Shown: one piece after another, positions 3,966 to 46,878 of the stretch | How positions within the stretch are numbered: position 1 is the first letter of the stretch | How the letters are laid out: each line of letters begins with the position of its first letter | Assembly (NCBI GenBank): GCA_944376495.1 | Contig: CALWCW010000068.1 | Location: 14,456 to 78,455, forward strand | Direction of reading: 5' to 3' | Length of the DNA stretch: 64,000 nucleotides | Origin: an uncultured Clostridia bacterium | GTDB lineage: Bacteria; Bacillota; Clostridia; Christensenellales; UBA1242 | The notes under the pieces: generated by a model | Databases searched by the model: none | Told to the model about the DNA's origin: nothing | Seen by the model: only the letters and a program-made list of their open reading frames with translations | Translations under genes and position numbers: made by a program

Positions 3966-6701
3966 ATGGGACTTTTTGGAAATGAAAATAAAGCTCAAGT
4001 AAAAAAATTAAGAAAAATTGCTGATAAAGTAATTGCTTTAGAGGACAAATATAAAGATTATACGAATGAACAACTGCGAGCTTGCACTGATGAATTTAAA
4101 AATAGATATAAGGTTGGTGAAAGTCTTAATGACCTTTTACCTGAAGCATATGCTGTTGTCAGAGAAGCGGCAACAAGAGTTTTGAATATGCGTCATTTTT
4201 ATGTTCAAATTTTGGGTGGAATTGCTCTTCATCAAGGAAGAATTGCAGAAATGGCAACAGGTGAAGGTAAAACCTTGGTGGCGACTTTACCTGCTTATCT
4301 TAATGCTATCACAGGAAAAGGCGTTCACGTTGTGACAGTCAATGAATACCTTGCTAAACGTGATGCCGAGTGGATGGGAAAGGTTTATAAATTTCTTGGA
4401 CTTACTGTCGGGGTAACTTTAAACGGACAAAATGAGGAGCAAAAGAAAAAAGCATATCTTGCCGACATAACTTATTGCACAAATAATGAACTAGGTTTTG
4501 ACTATCTTCGTGACAACATGGCAAGAAGTAAGAATGAAAGAGTTCAAAGAGGATTAAATTTTGCAATAGTCGATGAGGTTGATAGCATTTTAATTGATGA
4601 AGCAAGAACACCTCTTATTATAAGCGGACGTGGCGGAAAATCTTCAGAAGGCTATGTTATAGCACAAAAATTTGTCAAAACTTTGAAAGAGGAATCTGAC
4701 GTTGAAATAGATGTAAAAACAAAACAAATCAATTTGACTGACAAAGGCATCTCAAAGGCAGAGGCTTTTTATAAGATTGACAGCCTTTCAGATATTGAAA
4801 ATCTTGAAATAAATCATTATATTAACAATGCACTACGTGCAAACTTTATCATGCACAGAGATGAAAATTATATTGTTAATAAAGATAAAGAAGTGGTTAT
4901 TGTTGATGAGTTTACTGGTCGTTTATCTCCTGGACGTAGATTTTCATCTGGACTTCATCAAGCAATTGAGGCTAAAGAGGGAGTCGATATAAAAGATGAA
5001 AACCAAACTTTTGCGACAATAACATTCCAAAATTTCTTTAGATTATATTCAAAATTATCTGGTATGACAGGAACTGCTAAAACAGAAGAAGGGGAATTTA
5101 GAACAATTTATAATTTAGATGTTGTTATTATTCCACCAAACCTTCCAAAACAGAGAATAGATTATCCTGACATCATGTATGTTACAGAAAAAGGAAAAAT
5201 TCCTGCAATTATTGAAGAAATTAAGGAATGTCAAAAGAAAGGACAGCCAGTTTTGGTCGGAACAATAAACATTGATAAGTCAGAAGAACTTTCAAAAGAA
5301 CTTAAGCATGCTGGCATCAAACATCAAGTTTTGAATGCCAAAAACAACGAAAAGGAAAGCGAAATTGTTGCTCAAGCAGGAAGAAAGGGTGCGGTCACTA
5401 TTGCTACTAATATGGCAGGTAGAGGAACTGATATTTTACTTGGCGGTAACCCTGAATTTATGGCTACTAAGGAAATGAGAGAAAAGGGATTTAGCGAAGA
5501 AGAAATCTCATATGCAACCGCATTTAACTATGTTGATGATGAAAAATTAAATCAAGCAAGAGATGAATATAAAAAACTTTATGCAGAGTATAAAAAGGTT
5601 ACAGATAATGAAAAAGAAGAAGTAAAAAAGGTTGGCGGATTGCATATTGTCGGCACTGAAAGACATGAATCACGACGAATTGATAATCAGCTTCGTGGTC
5701 GTGCTGGACGTCAAGGTGACCCAGGTTCTAGTGTATTCTTCATATCTCTTGATGACGACCTTTTCAAAAGATTTGCTACTGATAAACTTAAAAAAGTGCT
5801 TTCGATTTTCAAATTTGATGAAAATATGCCAATTCAAATGAAAATGATTTCACGTCAAGTTGAAGCATCTCAAAAGAAGATAGAACTTCAAAACTTTGGA
5901 ATTAGAAAGACAGTTTTACAATTTGATGATGTTATGAATAAACAAAGAGAAATCATTTATCAAGAGCGAAATGAGGTTTTAGATGGAAAACCTGTCCATG
6001 ACCAAATTATGAGAATGTTCCCTGAAGTTGTTGCTAAAGCAGTTTATAAAGTAATAAGCGATGATAAACCTTATTATCAATGGGATTTACAAGCACTAAA
6101 TAAAGAGTTAGAAAATGGATTGCTTGAAAAAGATAGCAATCAAATTACAGAAGAATTTGTTGAAGAGTGTGACGCACAAGATGTAATTGAAAAAGTGCTT
6201 GACCTTATTGATAAACGTTATAAAGAACGTCAAGAGGAAGTTAAGGAAATTGGAGCAAACTTTGAAGATATTGAAAGAAATGTGCTTTTGCGTATGGTTG
6301 ATATAAATTGGATGAGTCAAATTGAAGATATGCAAATCATGAAAGATGAGATAATTTCAAGACAGTTTGGGCAACAAGACCCTGTTCTTGCTTATAAGAA
6401 AGAAGGGTTTGAAATGTTTGATAATATGATTTATAAGATTAAAGAAAACACTTGTAAAGTATTATTAAACGCTAAAATTCAACAAGCACCAACAGTTCCA
6501 CAGCCACAACCAGTAAAAATTATGTTTACAGGCAAAGAATTGACTCCAGAAGAAAGAGCCGCACAAAAAGCAAAAGGGAAATTGCAAGTTCAAAAAACAG
6601 TTTATAATGATAAACCAAAAGCGGGCAGAAATGACCCTTGCCCATGCGAAAGTGGAAAAAAATATAAAAATTGTTGTTGGGATAAAGACCATATTTCATA
6701 A
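3966..6701 (+). CDS. secA: Preprotein translocase ATPase SecA
   Basis: 911 aa. Shows the DEAD-like motor (MATGEGKTLVATLPAYLNA, DEVDSILIDEARTPLIISG) and the C-terminal zinc finger CPCESGKKYKNCC. GGAG RBS upstream. Confidence 0.97.
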   Translation: MGLFGNENKAQVKKLRKIADKVIALEDKYKDYTNEQLRACTDEFKNRYKVGESLNDLLPEAYAVVREAATRVLNMRHFYVQILGGIALHQGRIAEMATGEGKTLVATLPAYLNAITGKGVHVVTVNEYLAKRDAEWMGKVYKFLGLTVGVTLNGQNEEQKKKAYLADITYCTNNELGFDYLRDNMARSKNERVQRGLNFAIVDEVDSILIDEARTPLIISGRGGKSSEGYVIAQKFVKTLKEESDVEIDVKTKQINLTDKGISKAEAFYKIDSLSDIENLEINHYINNALRANFIMHRDENYIVNKDKEVVIVDEFTGRLSPGRRFSSGLHQAIEAKEGVDIKDENQTFATITFQNFFRLYSKLSGMTGTAKTEEGEFRTIYNLDVVIIPPNLPKQRIDYPDIMYVTEKGKIPAIIEEIKECQKKGQPVLVGTINIDKSEELSKELKHAGIKHQVLNAKNNEKESEIVAQAGRKGAVTIATNMAGRGTDILLGGNPEFMATKEMREKGFSEEEISYATAFNYVDDEKLNQARDEYKKLYAEYKKVTDNEKEEVKKVGGLHIVGTERHESRRIDNQLRGRAGRQGDPGSSVFFISLDDDLFKRFATDKLKKVLSIFKFDENMPIQMKMISRQVEASQKKIELQNFGIRKTVLQFDDVMNKQREIIYQERNEVLDGKPVHDQIMRMFPEVVAKAVYKVISDDKPYYQWDLQALNKELENGLLEKDSNQITEEFVEECDAQDVIEKVLDLIDKRYKERQEEVKEIGANFEDIERNVLLRMVDINWMSQIEDMQIMKDEIISRQFGQQDPVLAYKKEGFEMFDNMIYKIKENTCKVLLNAKIQQAPTVPQPQPVKIMFTGKELTPEERAAQKAKGKLQVQKTVYNDKPKAGRNDPCPCESGKKYKNCCWDKDHIS

Positions 6702-6836
6702 TGTCATAATAAAAATTTTTCAATATTCAAGCATGAAATTAAGTTATATTGAATAAATTTAAAAAAAACAAAAAATATTGTGCATTTGTTTTGAAAAACT
6801 TTTCTTTTATGATAAAATCATTTCATAGGAGCATTC

Positions 6837-7118
6837 ATGAAGAGTTATACTTATCCTGCTATTTTTATTAAAGACCAAGAAAATGATGGTTATCAAGTGT
6901 TGTTTCCAGATTTAGAGGTTACAACAAAAGGTGAATTTATTGAAGAAGCTTTCTTGTATGCAAAAGCAACTTTAAAAGCATACTTTGTTTATATTGAAAA
7001 ATATGACCTTGATTTTAATATGCCTACAGAATATGAAATTGTAAAAAGTGCATGCGGACAAGATGAAATTGTTATGCTTGTAGATGTGGATGTTAATGAA
7101 AATGACTATGAGGAATAA
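6837..7118 (+). CDS. HicB-like (UPF0150 antitoxin-fold) small protein, no partner toxin visible
   Basis: 93 aa. The N-terminus YPAIFIKDQENDGYQVLFPDLEVTTKGEFIEEAFLYAKATLKAY matches the HicB N-domain pattern from memory. There is no DNA-binding tail and no adjacent hicA-size ORF. Confidence 0.5.
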   Translation: MKSYTYPAIFIKDQENDGYQVLFPDLEVTTKGEFIEEAFLYAKATLKAYFVYIEKYDLDFNMPTEYEIVKSACGQDEIVMLVDVDVNENDYEE

Positions 7119-7155
7119 AATTTTATATATTTTTTGTAAAATTTTTAATTAATTG

Positions 7156-7184
7156 TTGACAATTATTTTAGTATGTGTTATTAT
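7156..7184 (+). promoter_or_regulatory. Sigma-A type promoter of the rpmG-secE-nusG operon
   Basis: TTGACA (7156-7161), 17-nt spacer, TGtTATTAT extended -10 (7176-7184). Confidence 0.5.
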
Positions 7185-7188
7185 ATAA

Positions 7189-7221
7189 CTAGCACTTTCC
7201 GAGAGGGGTGTTAGTTTTTTT
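7189..7221 (+). promoter_or_regulatory. Terminator-like hairpin plus T7 in the rpmG leader (possible attenuator)
   Basis: CTAGCAC (7189-7195) pairs with GTGTTAG (7208-7214, one G-U), followed by TTTTTTT (7215-7221). It lies between the promoter and the rpmG RBS. Confidence 0.3.
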
Positions 7222-7236
7222 GTTAGGAGAAGAAAA

Positions 7237-7398
7237 ATGGCATTACCAAAACGTAAAAATATTATACTTGCTTGCACAGAGTGTCAAGAAAGAAATTATG
7301 CAACAAGCAAAAACACAGCTGCAAATCCTGAAAGAATTGAAATTGTTAAATTTTGCTCACGTTGCGGGAAAAGAACTGTTCATAAAGAAACAAAATAG
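7237..7398 (+). CDS. rpmG: 50S ribosomal protein L33
   Basis: Hand-translated 53 aa: [53 protein letters not shown]. Shows the CxxC...CxxC zinc ribbon and an AGGAGA RBS. It is below the 60-aa cut-off of the ORF track, which lists a spurious 7208..7402 frame instead. Confidence 0.9.
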
Positions 7399-7413
7399 TT
7401 AATCGGAGGTTTT

Positions 7414-7842
7414 ATGGCAAAAAATAAAAAATCACAGAAACCAAAGAAAAATGTGACAGAAGCTGTAACGCCTTCTGATGTTTCTATTGAAACTGAAACT
7501 CAAAATCAAGTAAATGAAATTGAAAATAGTGAAGAAACAGTAGAAACAAAACAGGTTGCTGTTGAAAAAGAACAAGACAACAAGAAGCAAAATAACAGCA
7601 AAGATAATGACAAAAACAAAAAAGATAAAGAGGGCAAAAACAAAAAGAAACCTAAAAAGGAAAAGGGCAAATTAAAAAGAAAGACAAAAGAAACCTTTTC
7701 TGAACTTAAAAAAGTGACTTGGCCAACTTTTGGTGAAGTTTGCAAAAAAACAGGTGTCGTATTGGTTGTTGTTCTTATTTTTGCAGTTGTTATTTTTGGG
7801 ATTGATTATTGTTTAGGCCTACTTGTTGGGTTGTTAAGATAA
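7414..7842 (+). CDS. secE: Preprotein translocase subunit SecE with a ~95-aa Lys/Glu/Asn-rich N-terminal extension
   Basis: The C-terminus ELKKVTWPTFGEVCKKTGVVLVVVLIFAVVIFGIDYCLGLL is the canonical SecE TM segment. The position between rpmG and nusG fits. GGAGG RBS. Confidence 0.85.
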   Translation: MAKNKKSQKPKKNVTEAVTPSDVSIETETQNQVNEIENSEETVETKQVAVEKEQDNKKQNNSKDNDKNKKDKEGKNKKKPKKEKGKLKRKTKETFSELKKVTWPTFGEVCKKTGVVLVVVLIFAVVIFGIDYCLGLLVGLLR

Positions 7843-7853
7843 GAGAGGTTGAA

Positions 7854-8549
7854 ATGGAAGAAGAAACAATTTTAAACCAAAATCAAGTTGAAAATGAAAC
7901 TCAACAAATTAGTGAAGATTCTTTAGAAAATGCTGCAAAAGAAACTAAAGCAGAAAATTTGGAAGAAAGTTCTACGCAAACTGAAGAACTTAATGATGAC
8001 CAAATCGCCTATAAAGAATTTGTAGATTCTCTTCCAACGCATTGGTATGTGTTGCATACTTTTTCAGGGTATGAAAATGTTGCGAAAGAGAATTTGGAAA
8101 CTATGGTTGAAAAATTCAACTTGCAAGATAGAATTTTTGACATTATCATTCCTATGGAAGATGTCGTTGAAGAAAAAAATGGCAAAAAGAAACTTGTTCA
8201 AAGAAAATCAATGCCTTGTTATATCTTTATAAAGATGAAATATGCAGATGATATTTGGCATAATGTTATAAGAACACGTGGTGTTACTGGCTTTGCTGGG
8301 CCAAAAGGCCGTCCATTGCCACTCCCTGAACATGATATAATGAAATTTAAACTTGAAAAAATTAAGGTTGATGTTGACCTTTCAGTAAATGATAAAGTTG
8401 AGATTATAGATGGACCATTAAACGGACAAGTTGGGACTGTTTTATCAATTATTACAGAAACAGGTATTGTCAGTGTAGAAGTTGAAATGTTTGGTCGTGA
8501 AACCGCTGTTGACGTTGAAATTTCACAAGTTCGTAAAATTAATGCCTAA
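7854..8549 (+). CDS. nusG: Transcription termination/antitermination factor NusG (about 60-aa acidic N-terminal extension)
   Basis: NGN domain WYVLHTFSGYENVAKENLE and a KOW region (VEIIDGPLNGQVGTV). I prefer ATG 7854 (GAGAGG RBS, just after the secE stop) over the track start at 7809, which overlaps secE. Confidence 0.9.
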   Translation: MEEETILNQNQVENETQQISEDSLENAAKETKAENLEESSTQTEELNDDQIAYKEFVDSLPTHWYVLHTFSGYENVAKENLETMVEKFNLQDRIFDIIIPMEDVVEEKNGKKKLVQRKSMPCYIFIKMKYADDIWHNVIRTRGVTGFAGPKGRPLPLPEHDIMKFKLEKIKVDVDLSVNDKVEIIDGPLNGQVGTVLSIITETGIVSVEVEMFGRETAVDVEISQVRKINA

Positions 8550-8636
8550 TTTTAATTTAGTTAAAGCATAAAGTTAGATATTTTAGACTGAAAAGTTTAA
8601 ATATTGTCCAAGCATGACATTAAACTGCTATAGGAA

Positions 8637-8673
8637 TGTGGGAGAACGGAACTGCTACCGTTTGCTTACCACA
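8637..8673 (+). promoter_or_regulatory. Possible L1-binding leader hairpin of the rplK-rplA mRNA
   Basis: TGTGG-GAG-AACGG-(loop)-CCGTT-TGCTTA-CCACA forms a helix with an asymmetric internal loop containing GGGAG, immediately 5' of the rplK RBS. The resemblance to the L1 autoregulatory site is from memory only. Confidence 0.3.
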
Positions 8674-8687
8674 AAAGGAGGGAAAAA

Positions 8688-9116
8688 ATGGCAGAGAAAA
8701 AAATTGCTGCAGTTGTAAAATTACAACTCGATGCAGGTAAAGCCACTCCAGGACCTCCAGTTGGTTCTACGTTAGGACCTCATGGAATAAACCTTGGTGC
8801 CTTTACAAAAGAATTTAATGAGAAGACAGCTTCTCAAGCAGGACTTAAAATTCCTGTAGTAGTGACTATCTATGCAGATAGAAGCTTTTCGTTTGTGCTC
8901 AAAACTCCACCAGCAGCTATTCTTATTATGAAGGCTATTGGACTTGAAAAGGGTTCTGCAGTTCCAAACAAAACAAAAGTCGGACAAATTACTAAAGCAC
9001 AAGTTAGACAAATAGCCGAAACAAAAATGCCTGATTTGAATTGCACATCAATTGAATCTGCTATGTCTATGATTGAAGGTGCCGCTCGTAGTATGGGCGT
9101 CGTTGTAGTTGACTAA
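8688..9116 (+). CDS. rplK: 50S ribosomal protein L11
   Basis: 142 aa. [37 protein letters not shown] is the typical L11 N-domain. Confidence 0.97.
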
Positions 9117-9127
9117 GGAGGGCGAAA

Positions 9128-9808
9128 ATGAAAGTTACAAAAAAACAAGCTCAAGCAAATGAGATGATTACTCAAAAATCTTATGATGTAGCAAGCGGAT
9201 TTGAAACTCTTTTATCTCTTCCTAAAGCGAAATTTGATGAAACAGTTGAACTTCATGTTAGACTTGGTGTAGATGGAAAAAATGCTGACCAACAAGTTAG
9301 AGGTGTTTGTATTCTTCCTCATGGAACAGGAAAAACACTAAAAGTTCTTGTTATCGCTAAAGGTGATAAGGCTGACGATGCTGTTAAAGCAGGTGCTGAT
9401 TATGTTGGTGCAGAAGAAATTGTTGCTAAAATTCAAGGTGGATGGCTTGATTTCGACGTTTGTATCACAACTCCTGATATGATGGGTGTTGTTGGACGTG
9501 TTGCTAGAGTTTTAGGACCAAAAGGTTTAATGCCAAATCCAAAGAGCGGAACTGTTACTATGGACGTTACAAAGGCTATCAATGATGCAAAAGCTGGTAA
9601 AGTTGAATACAGACTTGATAAAACAAATAACGTTCATGTAATTTTAGGAAAAGTTAGTTTTGGAAAAGAGAAGTTAATTGATAACTTTAATACAGTAATT
9701 GAGGCTTTAATTAAGGCTAAACCAGCAGCAGCAAAAGGACAATATCTAAAGAATGTTGCAATTGCTACTACAATGGGACCTGGACTTAAATTAAACGTTA
9801 CAATGTAA
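9128..9808 (+). CDS. rplA: 50S ribosomal protein L1
   Basis: 226 aa. Motifs: [24 protein letters not shown] and [15 protein letters not shown]. Confidence 0.97.
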
Positions 9809-9825
9809 TTAAATAATGTTTAAGA

Positions 9826-9882
9826 CAAAAACTACGTTTTAGAATAAATAAAACATTTATTCTTCCAAACGTAGTTTTTTTG
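9826..9882 (+). terminator. Rho-independent terminator after rplA
   Basis: AAAACTACGTTT...AAACGTAGTTTT outer stem with inner stem AGAATAAAT/ATTTATTCT, followed by a T run. Confidence 0.7.
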
Positions 9883-9974
9883 TTATAATTTGACAATTGA
9901 TATTATCATAATAATTTAAATTTAAGACAAAATAATATTATTATTAAAAAATGTTTATTTTGACACCATTTTTC

Positions 9975-10002
9975 TTGACGGGGGGGGGTATTGTGGTATT
10001 AT
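9975..10002 (+). promoter_or_regulatory. Candidate promoter with a poly-G tract in the -35/-10 spacer
   Basis: TTGACG (9975-9980), 16-nt spacer mostly made of the G run, then TGgTATTAT extended -10 (9994-10002). It lies about 30 nt upstream of ATG 10034. Confidence 0.5.
9980..9988 (+). repeat. G9 homopolymer
   Basis: Read directly as gacGGGGGGGGGta. It is the only long G/C homopolymer I noticed in this AT-rich window. Confidence 0.95.
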
Positions 10003-10056
10003 AAAATTGAAAATGATAAATAGGCGGTGACAAATGATAAAATTGAGATATTATAA

Positions 10057-11241
10057 TTGTTTATTATTTGCTTTTTTTTAATAATTAGTGGCATTATTTT
10101 AATTTTCATTCCATTTAACACAAATGCAGCTGAAGCTCATTTATATATTGATTTAATATATTTTGATGAAAATGGAAATCAAGCACCAATACCTTCATCT
10201 TTGACATCTAGTAATGTTAAAAATTTGTTTACAGTCACATGGGGTAATGGTTCTAGTCAAAGTGTTGATGCTCTTATTTTTAATGATTACGATTCTTCTT
10301 TTACTTTATATAACTTTTATATGTCTGATGTAAGAAATATAAGTGTTTATTTAGCATATTCAAGTGGAGGAATTTCAGCCTTTAATTACTCTTATAAACC
10401 TTATGCAATGTTGGGGATGAGTTCCTATTCGGGTGCTTTTTATAATTATACCATGTCACAAGCCTCATCTCTACAAAATACATACAATTTTCCTAATAAT
10501 TATCGAGTATATTTGATTTTTAGTTATTGTTATGATATAACAATTATTGATACTCAATTTGGTGAAACGCAAACTTATCAAGCACCTGCAAATTGTTGGT
10601 TTGGGTTAAGTTCTCCAACTTCTCATATAGGCTATACATTTTTAGGTTATTTTTCCTCTTATTCTGGAGGGACGGGATTGAGTTATATTGCTCCAGTTAC
10701 TTCAAATCAAACCATATATGCTAGATGGGAAGCGAGTAAATATGCTATTGTATTAGATAAGCAAGGAGGGACAGGAGGAGATTCAAATGTAACTGCAACA
10801 TATAATACAGCAATGCCAACAATTCAAATACCGACGCGAGAAGGTTATACTTTTAATGGTTATTTTACAAGGACAAATGGAAGCGGAACAAAATATTATA
10901 ATTCAGACGGAACTAGTGCTAGAAATTGGACATCAACAAGTGGAACAACTTTATATGCTTATTGGACGATAGAAAGATATAATATTAATTACTATGATAT
11001 TAGCACCAGTGATGGAATTACAGGGACTGCAAGAAATATTACATATAATTCTTCACTATCATTAAAAACACCAAATTCTAGAATAGGTTATACATTCGTT
11101 GGGTGGCAATACACTGTTAATGGAATTGAATATATTATTAGTAATTTAAATTGGACAGTGGAGGATTTAGGTGATAATAATGATACAGTCAATTTTATAG
11201 GACAATGGACTCCTAGAACTGATTACCTGTTTCAGGTGTAA
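10057..11241 (+). CDS. Secreted Listeria-Bacteroides repeat (InlB B-repeat / Flg_new) protein; start ambiguous because of a T8 tract
   Basis: 394 aa. Three repeats of the type GYTFxGYF...G...Y......TLYAxW (GYTFLGYFSS..IYARW, GYTFNGYFTR..LYAYW, GYTFVGWQYT..FIGQW). The hydrophobic N-terminus ends in NTNA-AEA. The track start is a TTG with no obvious RBS; the RBS-associated ATG at 10034 is one frame off. Confidence 0.75.
   Translation: MFIICFFLIISGIILIFIPFNTNAAEAHLYIDLIYFDENGNQAPIPSSLTSSNVKNLFTVTWGNGSSQSVDALIFNDYDSSFTLYNFYMSDVRNISVYLAYSSGGISAFNYSYKPYAMLGMSSYSGAFYNYTMSQASSLQNTYNFPNNYRVYLIFSYCYDITIIDTQFGETQTYQAPANCWFGLSSPTSHIGYTFLGYFSSYSGGTGLSYIAPVTSNQTIYARWEASKYAIVLDKQGGTGGDSNVTATYNTAMPTIQIPTREGYTFNGYFTRTNGSGTKYYNSDGTSARNWTSTSGTTLYAYWTIERYNINYYDISTSDGITGTARNITYNSSLSLKTPNSRIGYTFVGWQYTVNGIEYIISNLNWTVEDLGDNNDTVNFIGQWTPRTDYLFQV
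10072..10079 (+). repeat. T8 homopolymer inside the signal-peptide coding region
   Basis: Read directly as gcTTTTTTTTaa. Read from ATG 10034, the frame stops at TAA 10079-10081. Inserting one T would fuse MIKLRYYNCLLFAFF to LIISGIILIFIPFNTNAAEA. Confidence 0.95.
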
Positions 11242-11420
11242 TATTTGATATAATCCAATTATAGCCGAATGTTATATTCGGCGAACTCGGTTCATTATCT
11301 ATATGATTTAAATAGTTATATTTTAAAAAACTAACTAATAAATCTTTATAATAAAAGGTTAAAAATAAAGTTTTGAATTTAATGCAAATAAAAATTACAA
11401 TATATTCATGTTATTTTGTA

Positions 11421-11456
11421 AAAAAATCTCTTAAGAATTTTCTTAAGAGATTTTTT
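11421..11456. terminator. Bidirectional terminator between convergent surface-protein genes
   Basis: AAAAAATCTCTTAAGA-attt-TCTTAAGAGATTTTTT is a perfect hairpin flanked by A and T runs. Confidence 0.7.
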
Positions 11457-11620
11457 GTCGTCAATTGTGAAGTTAATTTCAAATTTATAAATTAATCTCA
11501 AAATTAATGTTACATTTAAGCATTCTATATTAAAGAATTCTAATTAATTAATTTGGAATTTTAGAAAAGTAAATGTAAAAATTTAATAAATTAATTAATT
11601 TTTTTGTTTTTTTCTTTCTA

Positions 11621-14600
11621 TTATTTAACTTTTTGACGTTTTCTTAATGCTAATGTAATACCAATGATTGCGGCAACTGCAATTACTCCAAATACAATAG
11701 CCATAATTGCAAATCCATTCAATGGGTCAGTTTTTTCTACCTTATAAGAGTAAAAAAGGTGACCGCTGGCTGTATAGATTTGAATATAATGAACACCGCT
11801 AGAAGTAATAGTTATAGTTGATGTTTCTCCCATTGAGGCAATTGTATCAGAATTGTAATTATATATAGATGAGCCAATTCTAATATAGGAATCACCAATT
11901 GCATCATAGTAGTTTTGAACATTTAGAGTGATTGTTATATTGCTAGTTGTGCTTGTGCCTTCTGGAATTGAAACAGTAATTGGAGGAGTTGCAACATTTA
12001 TCCATATTTCAAATGTAAATTCTTCACCGATAGTGTTTAAATACACGCTATCATTAGGACAAATAGTAATTGTATATCTTCCACCGCCTGTTTTTTCATC
12101 TAAATATGAGAGAAGCAATTCAGACAAGTAAACTTTATTATTTATAACTACTGTATCAAGATTTGAAATTTCAATCAAATCTTCTGTAATATCACGAGTA
12201 TCTTTTATGACTGATTTAATGTAATAATTTCCGTAAGTTGTAAATTCAAAAGCATAACGCGATTCATTTTTATTTATAATAGAGAATTTAAATTCAACCG
12301 TTCTAATTGGAATACCTGTTGTGCTAGTTGCTGTGAATGTAACTACATAATATCCAGCCTCTTCAAAGGTATATTCATTGTTTCGAGCAATATAGCCTGT
12401 TGTGCTGTCTGCATTTGTTCTTGCCGAATATTCTACTCCATTACGTTTTACAGAGATTGTTGGATAACCAGTAGGGTGATAATAAGTAGAAAGGTTAACG
12501 AGTGATAATGTTACAGAACTGTTATAAACGGCATTTTGAATAGGTTCTGTTATGACGGTATTACCTTCACTATCTGTTGAAGTTACTAAAAGTGGAGTAT
12601 AGTTCAAGAAGATTAAATCAAAGTATTCACTGCTACCAAATAATTGGACATTAGCAGGAGTGCATGAATCGTATAGTCTTAACCTATAAGAACCAGCCTT
12701 TTCTAGATAGATGTAAGAAGCATCATTTTCTTGATAAATTTCTGGGTAAATATTTATGTATTGTCCATTGAACAATTTTAATACCTCAATATGAACAACA
12801 TTTTGCTCAATGCCGTAATATCTTGAGAAACTTATCTTTAATCTGTCAAAATCGGCATTTTGAGCAGTTATAAGAGCAGAGGTTTCACTTTCTATTGATT
12901 CAATATTTCCAGACGCATTTTCATAATTAAATTGTGAAACAATGTCGTCAGTTTCTTCAATATATATAATTACAAAATCACCTCTAGATTCATCACATAC
13001 ATAGTTATATATTTCAACTCTAATATCTGTGCCAGTTGGGTCTTCGGCAATTAGATTTACGTTTACTCCTAATTCTTCATTTGGAATAATACTCAATCGA
13101 TTTCCCTTATCATCATACCTAACACTAACAATATAAGTTGTAGGATATTGAATACCTGATGTGCTAACATAAGAAATGTCACTTCGTTCTACATTAATTC
13201 CATCAACAGTAATATAGTAATAAGATGAAGCTGAATCTAAAATAGAAATTTGGTATATTGCACAAAGATTAGTAAATATTGTGTCAGAATCATACTTGAT
13301 TAAAATTAAATAATCACCAACACCGCTTATTGTATATCCACTTGTGGCAGAATTGTCACTATTCATATTTTCCCAAGTAGATCCGTTATCTCTTGAAAGA
13401 TAAACAGAATATGAATAACCTTTTTCATAATTAAATTCGCCTTCATAATCAAGAGATTGACCATCTTTAAAGTAAACGGATATGTTTTGAGAATAGGTTG
13501 TTATTGTTCGAGCAGAGGCGGTGTAAGGTGTTCCATAGAAGTTTACTGTATATGATGGTAAAGTTCCTAATTCAGTAATAGGATTTTGATTTTTATCATT
13601 GAAGATAATAGCTCCATTTGGAATATCATTCATAGTTGTTGTTACAAAAGGAAGTTGATAATATATAACAATGTGATAAATATCAGTTAGAGTACCTGTT
13701 TCAACATCAAATACTTCAATTCTATAATAATCGTTGTAAATATTTGCATCTGTTGGAGATAGGTTGTAATAAGAAATGTTATTTGCTCCATCATTTCTTT
13801 CGATAGTTCTTGTAATTTCTTCATCATTGCTGTTATATATTTGGACTGAATAGAGTAGAGTATTATACGAGAATCTTATTGTTTGGTCAGAAATATAAGT
13901 TGTTGAGCCATCACTTTCACTAATTTCATATATTGTGGAATCTCCAGATATTTCATCATATGCAACTTCGTTTGCAAGTTGAATTATAGTTTGAGTTCCG
14001 CCAAAATTATCAGTAATTTCCCATTTAATTTTTTGAGATGCGTTTGCACCTAAATTAATAGAAATTTGCAAAGTTGTACCATTTGCTAAAGTATTAAATG
14101 TGATGTAACTTGGCATAGGAGTGAAATCTTCTGTTGGTACCCATGTCCCATAAGGAGACTGATAGGCATCCATTATAAGAACCCACTTGTCAGTATCAAC
14201 AATACTATCATCAAATTGATATATTTTTATATCAGTAGGGAAGATGTAACTTGTTGTTGTGCTTTCAACTTCACTGTTTGTAGGAACAGTTATATTTAAA
14301 ATAGCAGATTGTATTAATGGGTCTTCAACTTTATCAGATCTTATAGAAGCATCCCTGATTGATAGATAAATTATAGTACTTGTTCCATTATATCTATCTG
14401 TTAAAGTCATGTTATGTTTATTGCTTGACGATGATACAGACTCAAAAATAGAATCCAATGTAGTTTGTTCAAATACAACACCTGTAGAGTTGAAGATTAC
14501 TCTGTAAAGTTCATTTTCGTTAAGCCATGGAGATTTCATGTATCGAACTTCACCTTGACCTGAAATTTGAACATAGAACATAGCCCATGGGTCTGATTGA

Positions 14601-17600
14601 TAACTGAAACTTGTCAATTCAAACCCGCTGTTTGAATAAATGTTAAAACCGCTTGTTATTTGACCATTGTCAATTATAATATCTTCTTCATTTTGAGAAT
14701 TAATATATGATAACGCATTTGTATTTACATTTTGGTCGTTTTCATTTGAAGAGTCAATAACATAAACAATATAAACTGACATATTTTTTGCATAATCAAG
14801 TTCTACTATTTCATAGTAACCGCATTGAACTTCAAAGTTTTCAGTTTCATAAATTCTTTCATAAAGGTTGTTATAGTTTCCTGCAGTAAATGAATTTTTA
14901 TCCACTTGAGTGTAACCGTTGTTTAAGTTATCAATATATCTATAATAAACATTTTGAGTATCATAAGGATAACGAGAAGAATTATCAAGAGTTTCTTTAA
15001 GTGTAGTAGTAAAATAATCTTTAGTTACATTATAACTATAGTATCTTAAGTTTCCTGTATCTAGCGAATATGAATAACTATAAATATTTAAATTGCTATT
15101 AGAGTTTACTTCTTGCTCTTCATTTTTATAATCATAATATTTACGCATATATAGTTCTTGATAAGACTTAGTAAAGGCACTCTTTGTAGCGGTTTCTGTG
15201 TTAGTCATTAGGTTTTGAAGATTTTGAGTTGGTGCCGACCTATCAAAATATATACGTTTTGTTATTTGATTGTAATATGCTGAATTATAACCATAATATT
15301 GCATTGTAATTTCTATATAACTGTTATCAGCAATGATTAAATTTGATGTATCTATTGTGAAATAACGTGTTCCTTCACCACTGATTTCACTTCTTGTGAA
15401 TGATTGAGGATAACTTGTAATATAAATATTATCTTCATCAATTCTTGCTTCATATTGACTTGTTGGCACTTCCCATTGTATTGTTAAAGAATCAGAATTT
15501 GTATAATAAACATTTGTGCTATTGTTATTGGTTGAGGTTAGGGTATAGCCATCAGAGCCAATTATTTCAAAATCAGGTTCTTGAGAGGTTATATTCCAAC
15601 CGAATTTGTAAAATTTGTAAAAATCACTTGTTGCACCTAAATTGTTTGCTTGATACATGGTTACAATGTATTGTCCAGGTTCATAGAAATAAGTTGTTGG
15701 TTGTGTTGTAGCAGATATTGTTCCACCTTGAGTAGAAACTTGATATAAATTTAAGAAACCATTAGTAGTGCTTCCATTTGAGCGATAGTAATAAGTTCTT
15801 CCTGCGTTTGTTCTCGCTTCTACTTCAACGTAAACCTCATATTCAGCAATAGATGCGTTGTTGTTTAAGTAGTTATAAGCGGCAATTTCTGTTGAAAAAC
15901 TTTCAACTGTAAGCCCTTCAATGATTACATCATAATATTTTGTTTCCTCATTGAAAACAACAGTTCCGCCACCATAATAAGAAAGGTTATCATTATGGTC
16001 AACTGAATATTCTTTTGCGTTAGTATCATTATTAGTAGAAGAACTTGTTGATACTGTATATTTATATTTTGGAACATATAATGTCATTGGCAGTTTATTT
16101 CCAGAAACATTAAATGTTTCCAAAGTTTCATCTACAGAAGCAAAAGAGTCTTTGGTATAGAACGAACCGCTATTCAATCCATCTCCGTTGATATAAGGGA
16201 ATGAAACTTCAATTGATGAGTTATTATTTCCGCTATACATGCTTAAGATAATATCTCCACCAACAATACTTTCAAGTGACGATGAACCATCTTCTTTTTG
16301 AATAGATTCAAGTTCTGAAATAAGGTTGTAATTATCTACATTAAAAGTAATTGTCCTTTTGAAATAGTCGTATTGGTCAGTTGCATTTCCATCAATATAT
16401 GTTCTTTCAATAACATATCTTCCTGCTCCAAAAGTAGAAGAATTAAGTTGAAGCGTATATGTAAGTTCATAATCTGAATCATAAACCACATCAGGTGAAT
16501 AAGTGTAAACATCAATTGTCCTGTAAGGACTATCTTCTATATCATAGTAGAAATAGGTTGCATTTCCAATTTCTGTAGATTTTGCTTCATATCTATAATA
16601 ATAAAGTTTAATTGATTGGACAATTGAACCATTTTCAGCAAATGGAACATATGAAATTATAATATCTTCAGTTGCACTGAGAGGAGTGTAGTAAGAAAAC
16701 TTGTAAGGCAAACTTGTCAAAACAGGCTCCTCAACATCTGTAGGCTCTAAATGTGAATAAATAGTATTTCCGCTTTCATCTTCGTATGAATAAAGGTAAC
16801 CTGTTAAATTAAAATAAGCAACTTCATATATACTTCCATCAGAACTTCCAATTGATATTTTGGATGCGTCAGATGTGACATTAAAAATTAAATAACTGCT
16901 TGGATAATTTCTAAAATTTTCACCTGGTGCAACTTGAGTGTTAGAAGCATCTTTAATTAAGATTCTATAAGTTCCTTCCAAAGCTTGTCCGTCGTCATCA
17001 ATAAAATCTATTTCATAACTAAAACCAGTATAATTTTCATAAGTAGAATGTAAAGTATCTTTTAAATAAGCATTTTCATCAATAGGAATAATGAAATAAT
17101 TACCATTATAACTTGAAATTCCAGTTGCTATTGCACCATTTGAGCCATCGTTTGTCGGAACTGAACCAAGATTTGTTATATTTTCTATAGATGAGTTATT
17201 TACAAAATAGTCGTTTAAAAGAGCATCTAATTTTTCTTGTGCACTTTCGACGTTTTTTCCATATTGATATGCTTGATACAAACTGCTTCCAGACGTAATT
17301 AAATCAAGATTGTCAATATAGATTGCTTTATTACTAGTCCATTCAATAGAAATTGATGTATTTTCATCTGGAACTGATATGCTTTCGTTGTTAGATATAA
17401 GATTTCTTGTTGTTATACCATTTGCATAAATACTTTGTAAAAATATTGGTGCAGAACTATCAAGCAAATAAATACCGAATGTAGAATTTCCTGCTTGGTC
17501 GTAAACTTCTAAAATGTAGAAACCATCGTTAGATTTTACATAAGAAGTATTTATAGTTGAAGTATAAGATTTTGTATTTTGATATTCAGACCAATCTGTT

Positions 17601-20056
17601 GCATTTGCCAAATCTATTTTATAAGATACTGGTAATGTATCATTGAAAGTAACTAATAAGGTTAATAAGTTATATAAATCATCTTCATTTTGTAAAGCAG
17701 AGTAGTAGTTTATTGCCTGAGTAGGTATATATTTTACAAAACCATAAGTAGTCGCTCCGCTATCCTTTTCGTCCCAAGAGAAAATCATAGGTTGATTTGT
17801 GCTATTTGAAGAGAAAGAAGAGCCAATCCTATAAGTAGTTGATGTTGATAAAGATACGTTTCGTGATGTTATAGGGCTAATTTCATATGTATCTATTGTG
17901 AACGAACTAGTGCTTGGTTTATCTGAGTTTATAGACCTTATATAAATTGTAAATTTTGCATTAGCAATTGAATTTGTATTTTCAATGAAAATTCCATATT
18001 TACCTGCAACGTTTTCGTTGTAAGCAGTGTCGGTGTCTTCTGAAGAAGGTTCAAATTGTCGATAAGTTATTCCATAACGAGAGAGAGCATCGATACTTGT
18101 ATTTTCAAAAATAGGTCTTTCTGCGACATAATCGTAAGCAGATAAAGTTATTTCAACTTTGGCATCATAAATATTATTTTCAGCATCATTCAAAATATAA
18201 ACACCTTTGTTTGTAAAACCATTAGAGTAAATTTCATTAAAATCAGTATCTAAAACTGTAACAGTAGGAATGGTGTTTGTCACAGTAAAATAGAATATTT
18301 GGTAATTATAGAACGCACTTTGCAAAGTTCCGCTTTGTGACATATAACTATCAAATTGATATTGTATTATATAAATATAAGTTCCAGCATCATTTTGATT
18401 GAATCCTTGAAAACTATTATTAGAATCATTAATGTTAGTAATGGATATAGTTTTATTTCCATCATTTTCAATAGTTTCTACATTATATATTTTACTATAA
18501 ACAGCATTTAAATTAGTATTGTTTAAAAATTTAATAGGAGTTTGGTTTGTTGAAACTGGCGTTATTTGTTTCTCATTAATGAATTTTACAACATTTGTTC
18601 TCAAAGTATCAATTGAAAAACTTGCATTACTAGTTGGTGCAGGATTTCGTAAAATACTTTGTAATTCAGATATGTCATTATCGTCTGTGCTTGAACTATT
18701 TATAATATAATTGTTAAATGAACTTGTTATATCTGCAGAATCGTTGTAAGTTGCATTGTCAAAATCAAAAGTTTTAAGTTCGACAGATTCAGGTTGGTTT
18801 GTTAGTGGGTCTATATTAGCATAATCTGAATAAACTGCTTGATAACCATATATATAAACCCTTTGATTTTTATTGTTGAAAACGGTTGATGAGTCCATAT
18901 TTTCAAGAGGCAGATTATAAATTATTTCTTCGTTGCCAGTTTTAGCAATGTAAAGATAATTGAAAGAAATATCGTAAGAGCCAAGATTATAGAATACTAA
19001 TTGAACCTCATTTTCGCTTAAAAGCGATGTTTCTATAAAATATTCATCTTCGTTATATTCGTTTCCATTTTCGTCATATTGCCTTATTCTTCCGTTTAAA
19101 TATTCTAATGTAGTTGAATATGTGTTTTGGTCAACGTCAGTATAAGCAATTGTCAATTGGTAAATATTAGGATTGTATTTAATGTTCGCAAGGGTGTTTG
19201 CACTTTGACCATAACCACTATTGAAATAATAATACTTTGAAAAATTATTAGATGTTGCAAGAGTGGTTTGTTGCATATTAGATGAGATGGTAAGGTTAGG
19301 TAGTCCAGTTGTTGAGTTAAAGTATGTATTTGCATTAAAAACCATAAATGTATAATAAACTCTTATTGGTTCAGATGTGAAAGTTATTCCTCCATTATCT
19401 GTATAATAAGCAAGAAGGGGAACAACAAGTGTATAGCAACCCTCTTGATTTAATTTTACAAGTCCGTTTGCTTCTGGTGAAACTGAAGATAAACTTGTAT
19501 CAAGTTCAAATTGAATTTTAAATTGTTGAGGTGTGAATGACTCATTAGATGGCACGAATCCTTTTTCATGTGATTTTGTGAATGATCCTATATCAGAATT
19601 TTGTAAAAGGTTTGTGCCTGTTTGACCTTGCTGAATTTGTTCGTTTGTGAGATTATAATAAAGAGAGAGTGATTCTTGAAAGTCAAAGTAATAAAATTCT
19701 TGATGAGTTGTATCTGCATCGTTTACAAGATAGGCATAGTTTGTATCTTTTCCTATTTCGGAAGGATTGCTAGTAGTAAGTTCATCATTTCCTATTATGA
19801 CTTGTTTATAACTATTTTCTTGGAAAAGATATATTGTATTATCAACTTGACCAACAGTTGCGTTAGTGCCTTGTGAAGTAATTATTTCAAAATAATCAGG
19901 CAGTGAATTTGAAATGACATCATAGTCAGAAATAGCAGCCTGCGCATTCAAATCATTTTTATTAAAAGAATTTGGCATGAAAATTCCTAAACATAACACA
20001 CCAATCATAATGAAAGAAAATATTAATGAATTAAATAATCTCTTTGCTTTATTCAT
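11621..20056 (-). CDS. Giant (2811 aa) Asn/Tyr/Ser/Thr/Ile-rich surface protein with signal peptide and C-terminal TM anchor
   Basis: Uninterrupted ORF. I prefer ATG 20056 (AGAGAGGTG RBS; MNKAKRLFNSLIFSFIMIGVLCLGIF...AQA) over the track start at 20107. The C-terminus GFAIMAIVFGVIAVAAIIGITLALRKRQKVK is a TM segment plus basic tail. There is no LPXTG and I recognised no domain. Confidence 0.85.
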   Translation of the reverse strand: MNKAKRLFNSLIFSFIMIGVLCLGIFMPNSFNKNDLNAQAAISDYDVISNSLPDYFEIITSQGTNATVGQVDNTIYLFQENSYKQVIIGNDELTTSNPSEIGKDTNYAYLVNDADTTHQEFYYFDFQESLSLYYNLTNEQIQQGQTGTNLLQNSDIGSFTKSHEKGFVPSNESFTPQQFKIQFELDTSLSSVSPEANGLVKLNQEGCYTLVVPLLAYYTDNGGITFTSEPIRVYYTFMVFNANTYFNSTTGLPNLTISSNMQQTTLATSNNFSKYYYFNSGYGQSANTLANIKYNPNIYQLTIAYTDVDQNTYSTTLEYLNGRIRQYDENGNEYNEDEYFIETSLLSENEVQLVFYNLGSYDISFNYLYIAKTGNEEIIYNLPLENMDSSTVFNNKNQRVYIYGYQAVYSDYANIDPLTNQPESVELKTFDFDNATYNDSADITSSFNNYIINSSSTDDNDISELQSILRNPAPTSNASFSIDTLRTNVVKFINEKQITPVSTNQTPIKFLNNTNLNAVYSKIYNVETIENDGNKTISITNINDSNNSFQGFNQNDAGTYIYIIQYQFDSYMSQSGTLQSAFYNYQIFYFTVTNTIPTVTVLDTDFNEIYSNGFTNKGVYILNDAENNIYDAKVEITLSAYDYVAERPIFENTSIDALSRYGITYRQFEPSSEDTDTAYNENVAGKYGIFIENTNSIANAKFTIYIRSINSDKPSTSSFTIDTYEISPITSRNVSLSTSTTYRIGSSFSSNSTNQPMIFSWDEKDSGATTYGFVKYIPTQAINYYSALQNEDDLYNLLTLLVTFNDTLPVSYKIDLANATDWSEYQNTKSYTSTINTSYVKSNDGFYILEVYDQAGNSTFGIYLLDSSAPIFLQSIYANGITTRNLISNNESISVPDENTSISIEWTSNKAIYIDNLDLITSGSSLYQAYQYGKNVESAQEKLDALLNDYFVNNSSIENITNLGSVPTNDGSNGAIATGISSYNGNYFIIPIDENAYLKDTLHSTYENYTGFSYEIDFIDDDGQALEGTYRILIKDASNTQVAPGENFRNYPSSYLIFNVTSDASKISIGSSDGSIYEVAYFNLTGYLYSYEDESGNTIYSHLEPTDVEEPVLTSLPYKFSYYTPLSATEDIIISYVPFAENGSIVQSIKLYYYRYEAKSTEIGNATYFYYDIEDSPYRTIDVYTYSPDVVYDSDYELTYTLQLNSSTFGAGRYVIERTYIDGNATDQYDYFKRTITFNVDNYNLISELESIQKEDGSSSLESIVGGDIILSMYSGNNNSSIEVSFPYINGDGLNSGSFYTKDSFASVDETLETFNVSGNKLPMTLYVPKYKYTVSTSSSTNNDTNAKEYSVDHNDNLSYYGGGTVVFNEETKYYDVIIEGLTVESFSTEIAAYNYLNNNASIAEYEVYVEVEARTNAGRTYYYRSNGSTTNGFLNLYQVSTQGGTISATTQPTTYFYEPGQYIVTMYQANNLGATSDFYKFYKFGWNITSQEPDFEIIGSDGYTLTSTNNNSTNVYYTNSDSLTIQWEVPTSQYEARIDEDNIYITSYPQSFTRSEISGEGTRYFTIDTSNLIIADNSYIEITMQYYGYNSAYYNQITKRIYFDRSAPTQNLQNLMTNTETATKSAFTKSYQELYMRKYYDYKNEEQEVNSNSNLNIYSYSYSLDTGNLRYYSYNVTKDYFTTTLKETLDNSSRYPYDTQNVYYRYIDNLNNGYTQVDKNSFTAGNYNNLYERIYETENFEVQCGYYEIVELDYAKNMSVYIVYVIDSSNENDQNVNTNALSYINSQNEEDIIIDNGQITSGFNIYSNSGFELTSFSYQSDPWAMFYVQISGQGEVRYMKSPWLNENELYRVIFNSTGVVFEQTTLDSIFESVSSSSNKHNMTLTDRYNGTSTIIYLSIRDASIRSDKVEDPLIQSAILNITVPTNSEVESTTTSYIFPTDIKIYQFDDSIVDTDKWVLIMDAYQSPYGTWVPTEDFTPMPSYITFNTLANGTTLQISINLGANASQKIKWEITDNFGGTQTIIQLANEVAYDEISGDSTIYEISESDGSTTYISDQTIRFSYNTLLYSVQIYNSNDEEITRTIERNDGANNISYYNLSPTDANIYNDYYRIEVFDVETGTLTDIYHIVIYYQLPFVTTTMNDIPNGAIIFNDKNQNPITELGTLPSYTVNFYGTPYTASARTITTYSQNISVYFKDGQSLDYEGEFNYEKGYSYSVYLSRDNGSTWENMNSDNSATSGYTISGVGDYLILIKYDSDTIFTNLCAIYQISILDSASSYYYITVDGINVERSDISYVSTSGIQYPTTYIVSVRYDDKGNRLSIIPNEELGVNVNLIAEDPTGTDIRVEIYNYVCDESRGDFVIIYIEETDDIVSQFNYENASGNIESIESETSALITAQNADFDRLKISFSRYYGIEQNVVHIEVLKLFNGQYINIYPEIYQENDASYIYLEKAGSYRLRLYDSCTPANVQLFGSSEYFDLIFLNYTPLLVTSTDSEGNTVITEPIQNAVYNSSVTLSLVNLSTYYHPTGYPTISVKRNGVEYSARTNADSTTGYIARNNEYTFEEAGYYVVTFTATSTTGIPIRTVEFKFSIINKNESRYAFEFTTYGNYYIKSVIKDTRDITEDLIEISNLDTVVINNKVYLSELLLSYLDEKTGGGRYTITICPNDSVYLNTIGEEFTFEIWINVATPPITVSIPEGTSTTSNITITLNVQNYYDAIGDSYIRIGSSIYNYNSDTIASMGETSTITITSSGVHYIQIYTASGHLFYSYKVEKTDPLNGFAIMAIVFGVIAVAAIIGITLALRKRQKVK

Positions 20057-20479
20057 ACAAACACCTCTCTTTGATTTATACAATATGATTTTATCACATA
20101 CTAGCAAAAAATCAAAATAATTTTGACGAAATATATAAGATTATAATATATATTTTATATATAATTTAATATAAACATAAAATTAATTTTTAAGCATAAA
20201 AAGAGCAAATTGTCTGGAATAATTGAAAAAATAAATAGAATTAATATAAAAATAAATTTTTGATGAAGATATTTAGATAAAATCATGTATTTTTGCTATA
20301 AAATACGTAAAAAACACTGTATTTTTCAATTTTGCGTTAAAAATCTTAAAATTTATGTTTTTTATTAAAATTTTAGCCTGATGAATTTAATTTAGATTTT
20401 GTAATTATTCTGAAATGACTTTTGAACACATTTTGTCATTCTGATAAAAAAAATCATATAAAGAATAAGGAGAATAAAT

Positions 20480-26561: not shown

Positions 26562-26577
26562 TTTTTTTTTTTTTTTT
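26562..26577. repeat. T16 homopolymer in a convergent intergenic region
   Basis: Read directly as gataTTTTTTTTTTTTTTTTaaaaag. Confidence 0.9.
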
Positions 26578-26744: not shown

Positions 26745-28028
<1,284 letters not shown>

Positions 28029-34660: not shown

Positions 34661-34776
34661 AACACTATTTCTCCTTGCTTTTTTTATTATTCCTCATAAA
34701 AAAGATATTAAACATTTGATTTTTTTTTAGAAAAATTGTAATATTAAATTAGATATATTAAAAAGGTGGTGACACT

Positions 34777-46694: not shown

Positions 46695-46870
46695 GAAATC
46701 TTTTCCTCCTTTTAAATTTAAGAATATTGTGAGAAAAAATAAAATCTCTATGCCTTCAGGAAAAAAGACATAGAGATGGAAAACCAAACTATATAACTTC
46801 TTTCCTCGGCAAGCACACGCATGGTGTTTATGTTTTCACACTTGCTGTCTATGGACAAGATTTTATTTTA
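46695..46870 (-). promoter_or_regulatory. rplJL leader (L10-leader-like) with intrinsic attenuator hairpin
   Basis: About 175-nt untranslated leader. A G-U-rich helix GCAAGUGUG/CGUGUGCUUGC is followed by ATCTCTATG...CATAGAGAT plus a T run (46745-46787, minus strand). This is consistent with L10(L12)4-mediated attenuation described for Bacillus. Confidence 0.55.
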
Positions 46871-46878
46871 ACGATAAT

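Follow-up and report, generated by a model that had tools for sequence, protein, structure and literature searches.

Switching of gene expression by simple repeats is a well-known class of mechanism, described at porA, opc, hif, vlp and tp0126/tpr. In the vlp genes of Mycoplasma hyorhinis (poly-A) and hifA/hifB of Haemophilus influenzae (TA repeats), the repeat lies in the -35/-10 spacer of surface-protein genes, and one conserved promoter design is common to the whole vlp multigene family. In Treponema pallidum, the poly-G tract between the -35 and -10 elements of tp0126 is optimal at a 17-nt spacer, and misannotated start codons were corrected after the promoter had been located (PMC7864442). 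In Neisseria meningitidis, poly-G in the porA spacer and poly-C at the opc -35 element give high, intermediate or no expression via the -35/-10 geometry, and porA transcription is abolished on loss of the 17-nt spacing (both as summarised in PMC7864442). Among Firmicutes, the T9 and T10 states of the intergenic poly-T tract at Spy1336/R28-Spy1337 of Streptococcus pyogenes alter transcription of the R28 surface protein, a repeat-containing protein whose tract is polymorphic in natural populations (PMC7098570). At about 30% G+C, as in Campylobacter and Helicobacter, G/C runs of at least 8 nt stand out and mark phase-variable surface-related genes (PMC6321876, PMC8437040).

Studies of phase variation in complex microbial communities have dealt chiefly with invertible promoters, and nearly all of the gut-microbiome papers retrieved for this analysis concern invertons; slippage switches are known mainly from a few pathogens. 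Here, we describe a G tract in the promoter of a surface-protein gene in 64,000 nucleotides of DNA from an uncultured Clostridia bacterium (hereafter the window). We consider this locus likely to be a two-tier simple-sequence contingency locus, in which a slippage-driven expression switch at the promoter is combined with a frame switch in the coding sequence.

Results

A G9 tract between the -35 and -10 elements of a predicted promoter

The locus is preceded by secA, a HicB-like gene, rpmG, secE, nusG, rplK and rplA (9128-9808). In the related species L030-L036, whose SecA is 86-88% identical, the next gene after rplA is the convergent giant gene in some cases, and in others an NT5C gene and an acetyltransferase gene come next; neither a surface-protein gene nor a tract is present after rplA. 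Since the gene is absent from this position in the related species, the gene and its promoter are an insertion specific to the lineage of the window. The giant gene is a 2828-aa ORF in the window (11621-20107, minus strand) without a Pfam or NCBIfam match, which ends in a hydrophobic stretch and a basic tail (…IVFGVIAVAAIIGITLALRKRQKVK) and is conserved at the same position in related species (2787-2858 aa). The usual rplKAJL cluster is split in the source organism; the L10 leader with rplJ and rplL is found at 46730-46872 on the minus strand, 36 kb from rplK-rplA and in the opposite orientation to it. The features between rplA and the ribosome-binding site are as follows.

9821-9885, plus strand: hairpin and T7 tail terminating the rplK-rplA operon (19-nt arms, 89% complementary, 27-nt loop; TTTTTTT at 9875-9881)
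9960-9974, plus strand: conserved upstream element TTGACACCATTTTTC, abutting the -35 hexamer and 80-95% identical in L001, L028, L037 and L038
9975-9980, plus strand: -35 hexamer TTGACG, from the consensus scan; TTGAC invariant in 9 of 9 aligned promoters
9980-9988, plus strand: G9 homopolymer in the -35/-10 spacer, a hypermutable element whose first G is the last base of the -35 hexamer
9992-9996, plus strand: TGTGg, a TRTG '-16' / extended -10 motif read from the sequence; TTGTG invariant in the promoter alignment
9997-10002, plus strand: -10 hexamer TATTAT, from the consensus scan
10003-10015, plus strand: conserved AAAATTGAAAATG, from the alignment

The terminator of the rplK-rplA operon would isolate the downstream promoter from read-through. 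The core promoter sequence of the window is cTTGACGGGGGGGGGtattgTGgTATTATaaaattg, and the elements and the 16-nt spacing (9981-9996) claimed in the earlier note are confirmed, with TTGACG at 9975-9980, TG at 9994-9995 and TATTAT at 9997-10002. The description of the spacer as mostly G tract does not hold, as the tract contributes only 8 of the 16 spacer bases. The extended -10 was understated; the TGn is present as claimed, but TGTG at 9992-9995 makes up the full TRTG '-16' motif. This motif, the definition of which reportedly comes from Voskuil and Chambliss in 1998, is typical of Firmicutes promoters.

Within 9000-12500, TTGACG-16-TATTAT is the top sigma-70-like site (10/12 matches plus the TG). 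Since promoter-like sites are common in AT-rich DNA (26 were found vs 20.5 expected), the hexamers by themselves are weak evidence. Transcription from the TTGACG/TATTAT promoter is predicted to start near 10009-10010, based on the usual distance from the -10 hexamer. The locus has the arrangement of the promoter-spacer repeat class, in which a homopolymer lies between recognisable -35 and -10 elements, and it is located directly 5' of a ribosome-binding site and an ATG.

The upstream element at 9960-9974 may be an UP element or an activator site. It reads TGACGCC or TGACGTCA in relatives, and the DNA farther upstream in L001, L028, L037 and L038 is identical only at the level of unrelated AT-rich DNA. 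Across the window, L037 and L038, the element reads TGAC(A/G)(C/T)CATTT(T/C)TC, and the L038 version includes the palindrome TGACGTCA.

Several other candidates for control of the gene were rejected. The alternative promoter GTGACA-16-TATTAT (10027-10054) is located downstream of the ATG, and L037 and L038 do not share the weaker promoter sites found upstream. A leader or riboswitch, such as the L10 leader expected after rplA, was rejected since the region 9800-10100 contains no Rfam match at or above the gathering score. No credible inverted repeats were found flanking 9960-10015, and the promoter has the same orientation in all 20 or more related loci; an inverton (invertible promoter) was rejected on these two grounds.

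The earlier note judged a G9 run improbable by chance and noticed no other in the window, and both points stand. The G+C content of the window is 29.8%, and the expected number of G runs of at least 9 nt is 0.004 with independent bases and 0.007 with a first-order Markov model. The G9 tract is the sole G or C run of at least 6 nt in the 64 kb, and the next longest runs are G5 and C4. The longest homopolymer of any kind is a T16 run (26562-26577), which is intergenic between a phage GP30.3-like gene and the convergent gene of a collagen-triple-helix-repeat protein (26745-27986, minus strand). A T9 run at 34720-34728 overlaps the promoter-like site TTGATT-17-TAATAT (34717-34745) in the region that separates two divergent genes, one rubrerythrin-like and the other encoding an uncharacterised 251-aa protein. 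This run may represent a further homopolymer within a promoter spacer, although runs of T are frequent in the genome. Neither mutS nor mutL was detected in the set of large window ORFs that was tested, a result that says little about mismatch repair.

A second tract puts the start codon out of frame

The gene downstream of the promoter has a second homopolymer, T8, at 10072-10079. The earlier note overlooked this tract, which is the clearer ON/OFF element of the two.

10023-10029, plus strand: ribosome-binding site GGCGGTG, 4-6 nt before ATG 10034
10034-10036, plus strand: true start codon ATG, used in the T9 alleles P0018, P0019 and P0020 and in P0063
10057-11241, plus strand: mechanically listed ORF with a TTG start, 394 aa, the body of a Listeria-Bacteroides-repeat protein shorter than the 824-aa allele
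10072-10079, plus strand: T8 homopolymer in the signal-peptide codons, out of frame with T8 and in frame with T9
10079-10081, plus strand: TAA stop, which ends the ATG frame after 15 codons at T8

With T9, the frame from ATG 10034 reads MIKLRYYNCLLFAFFLIISGIILIFIPFNTNAAEA, which looks by eye like a normal signal peptide, while the version starting at TTG lacks the charged N-region of the signal peptide. T9 versions are present in public data as proteins of 402 aa (P0020) and 824 aa (P0018 and P0019), and public protein sets contain both the 394-aa and the 402-aa versions. The sister allele P0063, which is 81% identical, has the same ATG and no T run, and reads GCTTTTGTGTTATTG. Since the T9 alleles and P0063 use the same ATG, ATG 10034 is the real start, and T8 is the out-of-frame state. 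The TTG start at 10057 is an artefact of the T8 frameshift. Since T8 stops the ATG frame after 15 codons, the window copy, the state of which is G9/T8, is translationally OFF. The T tract has the features of the translational frameshift-homopolymer class; it is a tract in the 5' coding sequence that sets the frame, and T8 and T9 both occur naturally.

The product had been described as a secreted protein with InlB B-repeats. The repeat is supported by a match of the window ORF to PF09479 (Listeria-Bacteroides repeat, Flg_new / InlB B-repeat; one match, 44.7 bits vs a cut-off of 27), but the listed TTG start cannot be kept, as it reflects the frameshift. PF09479 scores 46.9 bits in the long allele, and the paralogues match TIGR02543. 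No relative of the surface protein was found in the PDB, and no NCBIfam family was found for the long allele. The product is presumably exposed on the cell surface or released.

Both tracts vary in length on identical backgrounds

Exact-protein look-ups with L1 and the surface-protein variants retrieved about 20 contigs that belong to the species of the window and come from different metagenome assemblies. The tract lengths at the locus are listed below.

G9: window, L001, L002 (=L013), L004 (=L020), L005, L006, L011, L014, L018, L022, L024, L028
G10: L003, L015 (=L016), L017, L029
G10, less reliable: L021, at an error-laden contig end
G9 followed by an extra A, giving a 17-nt spacer: L023
T8: 10 loci and the window
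T9: 5 loci (L003, L011, L012, L023, L024)

G9 is found in about 12 assemblies, and G10 on at least three independent backgrounds (L003; L015/L016/L017; L029). The short allele, carried by the window, has G9 in the window, L002, L004, L006, L014, L018 and L022 and G10 in L015, L016 and L017. In the 824-aa allele, L003 has G10, and L023 has G9 and the extra A, which likewise gives a 17-nt spacer. L028 and L029 encode an identical 831-aa protein and have G9 and G10, respectively. As each of three allele backgrounds is found with both G lengths, the tract must have changed independently at least three times, and this recurrence suggests repeated change. All four combinations of the G and T tract lengths are found. 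The earlier note proposed a comparison of the tract across relatives, with an invariant length counting against a switch; among the related metagenome contigs, the length varies between G9 and G10. Of the spacer lengths of 15, 16 and 17 nt predicted from the gain or loss of one G, the locus shows 16 and 17 nt but not 15 nt in the species of the window.

The sequence around the tracts is almost unchanged. Over 1140 nt of neighbouring coding sequence, 14 of 16 loci show no difference at all, yet both tracts differ. Among near-identical short-allele loci compared over window positions 6128-12832, indels are found at the G and T tracts, apart from a 1-nt deletion in L024 and an altered terminator hairpin in L011; the more divergent L001, L003, L005 and L023 have a few further indels. 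As controls, ten A/T runs of 7-8 nt were compared, several of which are intergenic; each has one constant length in all of the 6-12 loci that span it. Outside the T tract, every A/T run of at least 7 nt in the shared region is invariant, including A8 at 6761-6768 and T7 at 9875-9881. The identical background and the invariant control runs form a pattern typical of hypermutable tracts, as opposed to general divergence or homopolymer sequencing noise. As expected for the promoter-spacer repeat class, tract length differs between close strains with conserved flanks.

It could be argued that the true lengths are fixed and that the differences are sequencing or assembly errors at homopolymers. Illumina sequencing is error-prone at poly-G, some G10 contigs have low coverage (about 4x in L015), the contigs with the highest coverage have G9 (L002 at 26x and L001 at 17x), and L019 and L021 are contig ends at the tract with obvious errors. 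Some assemblies may also re-use the same reads, as in L015 and L016. However, the ten other 7-8 nt homopolymers do not vary in the same contigs, the T9 alleles come from five different runs and give a coherent ORF, and G10 is present on three allele backgrounds and, in one sample, was called independently of the pipeline used (L015 and L016, from two pipelines). We therefore regard error as a highly improbable source of the variation.

The contigs of L012, L019, L021 and L024 start at window positions 9919-10026, so that several assemblies are interrupted less than 60 nt from the G tract. Obvious base errors are present near the G tract in L019 and L021, and L012 begins with Nextera adapter sequence. 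These breaks fit poor read quality or mixed tract lengths or cassettes, and are not specific evidence for heterogeneity. The full-length alleles (L003 and L023) both pair a 17-nt spacer with T9; with two loci, this association is suggestive only.

The window carries a truncated but widespread allele

The window allele encodes 394 or 402 aa, compared with 824 aa in the long allele, a truncation that the earlier note had overlooked. The structures at its 3' end are as follows.

11224-11302, no strand assigned: 79 nt that match an internal segment of the long allele in reverse orientation (L023 1806-1884), 100% identical in L003 and L023
11421-11456, no strand assigned: perfect hairpin of 17 bp (100% complementary, 2-nt loop) flanked by A and T runs

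In the short allele, positions 1709-2958 of the L023 long allele (about 1250 nt) are replaced by the 79-nt inverted copy, which causes the truncation. The last 30 nt of the long coding sequence persist as non-coding DNA in the region 11224-11334, and the junction has a 2-nt microhomology. The origin of the short allele looks like a template-switch deletion and not a regulated inversion. The hairpin at 11421-11456 is predicted to terminate transcription in both directions, for the surface-protein gene on one side and the convergent 2828-aa gene on the other.

The window allele, being frameshifted and truncated, looks degenerate, and variation on the short-allele background could reflect relaxed constraint. 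If the locus were a decaying pseudogene, the tract differences would be neutral drift in dead DNA. Such decay would account for the size of 394 aa vs 824 aa with inverted filler at the junction and for T8 as the majority state of the short allele, and related species lack the gene at this site entirely. On the other hand, G9/G10 variation is also found on intact alleles (L028 and L029; L003 and L023), and the short allele is T9 and in frame in L011, L012 and L024. The short allele is widespread, and its remainder is identical in more than 12 assemblies with no accumulating substitutions. We consider drift in a pseudogene very unlikely to explain the tract differences; moreover, it concerns the window copy and is compatible with a switch at the level of the gene family.

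The promoter is shared by different genes and by scattered paralogues

In L001 and L005, the G9 promoter precedes a different ribosome-binding site and a different, 848-aa repeat protein, and homology with the window stops at 10015 (+6). Paralogues with 37% identity are located at other genomic sites, between feoB and rpmB in L037 and adjoining spoIIR in L038. Since L037 and L038 are on the same contigs of about 200 kb, they are paralogues in one further genome; no housekeeping genes common to this genome and the window were found for comparison. Their module reads TCATTTCTCTTGACTGC-Gn-ATTGTGGTA..ATAAAA.TGAAA, with G9 and an 18-nt spacer in L037 and G11 and a 20-nt spacer in L038. Identity to the window is 80-92% over the 20 nt that precede the tract and the 26 nt that follow it, while the flanks of the module align at 60-67%, as does unrelated AT-rich DNA. 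The presence of the module before different genes and before 37%-identical paralogues argues that it is the functional promoter. A more distant homologue (31% identical) has G7 inside the promoter TTGACA-16-TAGAAT. Within the related species, the G7 of L034 was rejected as a length-variable tract, as it is a substitution variant upstream of another promoter.

The window's own genome contains a homologous promoter at the paralogue P0064 (855 aa, between uvrB and uvrA; L025 2360-2392). Where the window has the G tract, P0064 has a G-rich but interrupted, non-slippery stretch, GGAACGGG, and the interrupted spacer TTGACGGAACGGGAATTTGTGTTATAAT is identical in three assemblies. This promoter is a naturally occurring 'locked' control and gives a clue to the origin or decay of the tract. 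The paralogues sit among housekeeping genes (uvrB/uvrA, feoB/rpmB and recO/spo0A-like).

These relatives bear on the possibility that the G tract, although hypermutable, is silent with respect to function. A promoter with this extended -10 would then fire regardless of spacing, the switch would be limited to T8/T9 or absent, and the tract would persist fortuitously or on other grounds, for example DNA shape or the presence of a regulator site. The presence of the full TGTG motif, the unambiguous frame effect of the T tract and the restriction of the window's species to 16- and 17-nt spacers are all consistent with silence. A silent tract would not account for the invariance of TTGAC in every member of the module or for the retention of at least 7 G at four separate loci in DNA of about 30-35% G+C, where the expectation is about 0.005 per 64 kb. 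Furthermore, the 18- and 20-nt spacers of the paralogues are lengths that normally cripple promoters. A silent G tract seems unlikely to us, and a tract whose length sets promoter strength remains the reading that we prefer.

The distribution of the module was also surveyed with the pattern TTGACGGGGG..TTGTGGTATTAT (22 specified bases) in JGI metagenomes and GTDB genomes. By our own estimate, about one chance match per collection is expected for this number of specified bases. The scan did not recover the species of the window in either collection and gave three matches in other organisms, one of which (L008) was rejected as unrelated. The other two, L009 (317-345) and L010 (6511-6538), are on two unrelated contigs, read TTTGAC-G11 or G8(AC)-ATTGTGGTATTATTGGT with spacers of 17 and 16 nt, and have 6 further bases in common beyond the scan pattern. 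L010, labelled as an uncultured Phascolarctobacterium MAG, has 33% G+C and adjoins an integrase and a relaxase, and its site is upstream of a signal-peptide protein. The L009 site is upstream of a 338-aa protein without a Pfam match. A looser module pattern gave no match in viral contigs.

Discussion

A proposed two-tier switch

The likely two-tier switch combines what is observed, namely the anatomy of the promoter and tracts, the length polymorphism on identical backgrounds, the T8/T9 frame effects and the conservation of the module, with steps that we infer from sequence comparison. In the first tier, slipped-strand mispairing during replication would gain or lose a G. The distance and the twist between the -35 and -10 elements would be altered, to 16 nt with G9, 17 nt with G10 and 15 or at least 18 nt with other lengths, and the strength of the promoter would follow the length of the spacer. 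In the second tier, the T tract located 38 nt into the coding sequence determines the frame; T9 keeps ATG 10034 in frame, and T8 ends translation after 15 codons. The product is a signal-peptide-bearing Listeria-Bacteroides-repeat protein. Switching may be frequent and reversible within the population. In the window copy, translation is OFF, and the G9 promoter probably works, at a spacing below the optimum.

The two tiers need not contribute equally. Spacers of 16 and 17 nt are both normally permissive, and a full TRTG extended -10 lowers the dependence of a promoter on its -35 element. Since only 16- and 17-nt spacers are seen together with the full TRTG, the G tract may be a volume control, and the T tract the true ON/OFF element. 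The effect of G9 vs G10 on expression may accordingly be small.

A wider and more tentative reading, which we hold to be possible but would not yet favour, is that the promoter is a portable 'contingency promoter' module. The module would consist of TGACGYCATTTYTC, TTGAC, the G run, ATTGTGGTA..AT and AAAAnTGAAAATG, and would head a scattered family of Listeria-Bacteroides-repeat genes in several uncultured Clostridia. Within this reading, the module may also drive other cargo on mobile elements, as in L009 and L010. If the module is indeed portable, slippage phase variation would be for commensal Firmicutes, in general and so far overlooked, what invertible promoters are for Bacteroides, and tract lengths in metagenomes would report the ON/OFF state of surface proteins in situ.

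Since the mechanism itself is textbook knowledge, the conceptual gain is modest. Public assemblies alone reveal that an uncultured Clostridia lineage is naturally polymorphic for G9/G10 and for T8/T9, and the tracts provide a concrete marker, in that the tract length in reads should predict expression of the surface protein. There is also a lesson for annotation; a TTG start masks a frameshifted ATG, and a difference in protein length between MAGs corresponds to the state of the switch.

Comparison with known systems

Among the described systems, tp0126 and the tpr genes (E, G, J and L) of T. pallidum resemble the locus in having poly-G tracts of about 7-11 nt in the promoters of paralogous surface-protein genes. 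Their products are outer-membrane proteins of a spirochaete, the evidence for them includes 5' RACE, fragment-length analysis and GFP reporters, and there is no sequence homology with the Clostridia locus, which has Listeria-Bacteroides-repeat cargo and is known here by sequence comparison only. The porA gene also has a second tract in its coding region, which parallels the pair of G and T tracts found here. The Neisseria loci differ in that the host is a Gram-negative pathogen and the cargo a porin or adhesin. Whereas the functional range of porA extends from G11 (high) to G9 (off), only 16- and 17-nt states are seen at the Clostridia locus.

The S. pyogenes tract shares with this locus a Firmicute host, a repeat-containing surface protein and natural polymorphism, but it is a T tract between divergent genes that acts partly via a regulator gene and is not established as a simple spacer effect. 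In vlp and hif, the repeats are A or TA and the hosts belong to other phyla; the vlp genes are clustered, whereas the paralogues described here are scattered among housekeeping genes. The tracts of Campylobacter and Helicobacter are located mostly in coding regions, whereas the Clostridia locus has its G tract in the promoter and a poly-T tract in the coding region. What is new at this locus is the uncultured Clostridia host, the cargo family and the recurrence of one promoter module at scattered paralogues.
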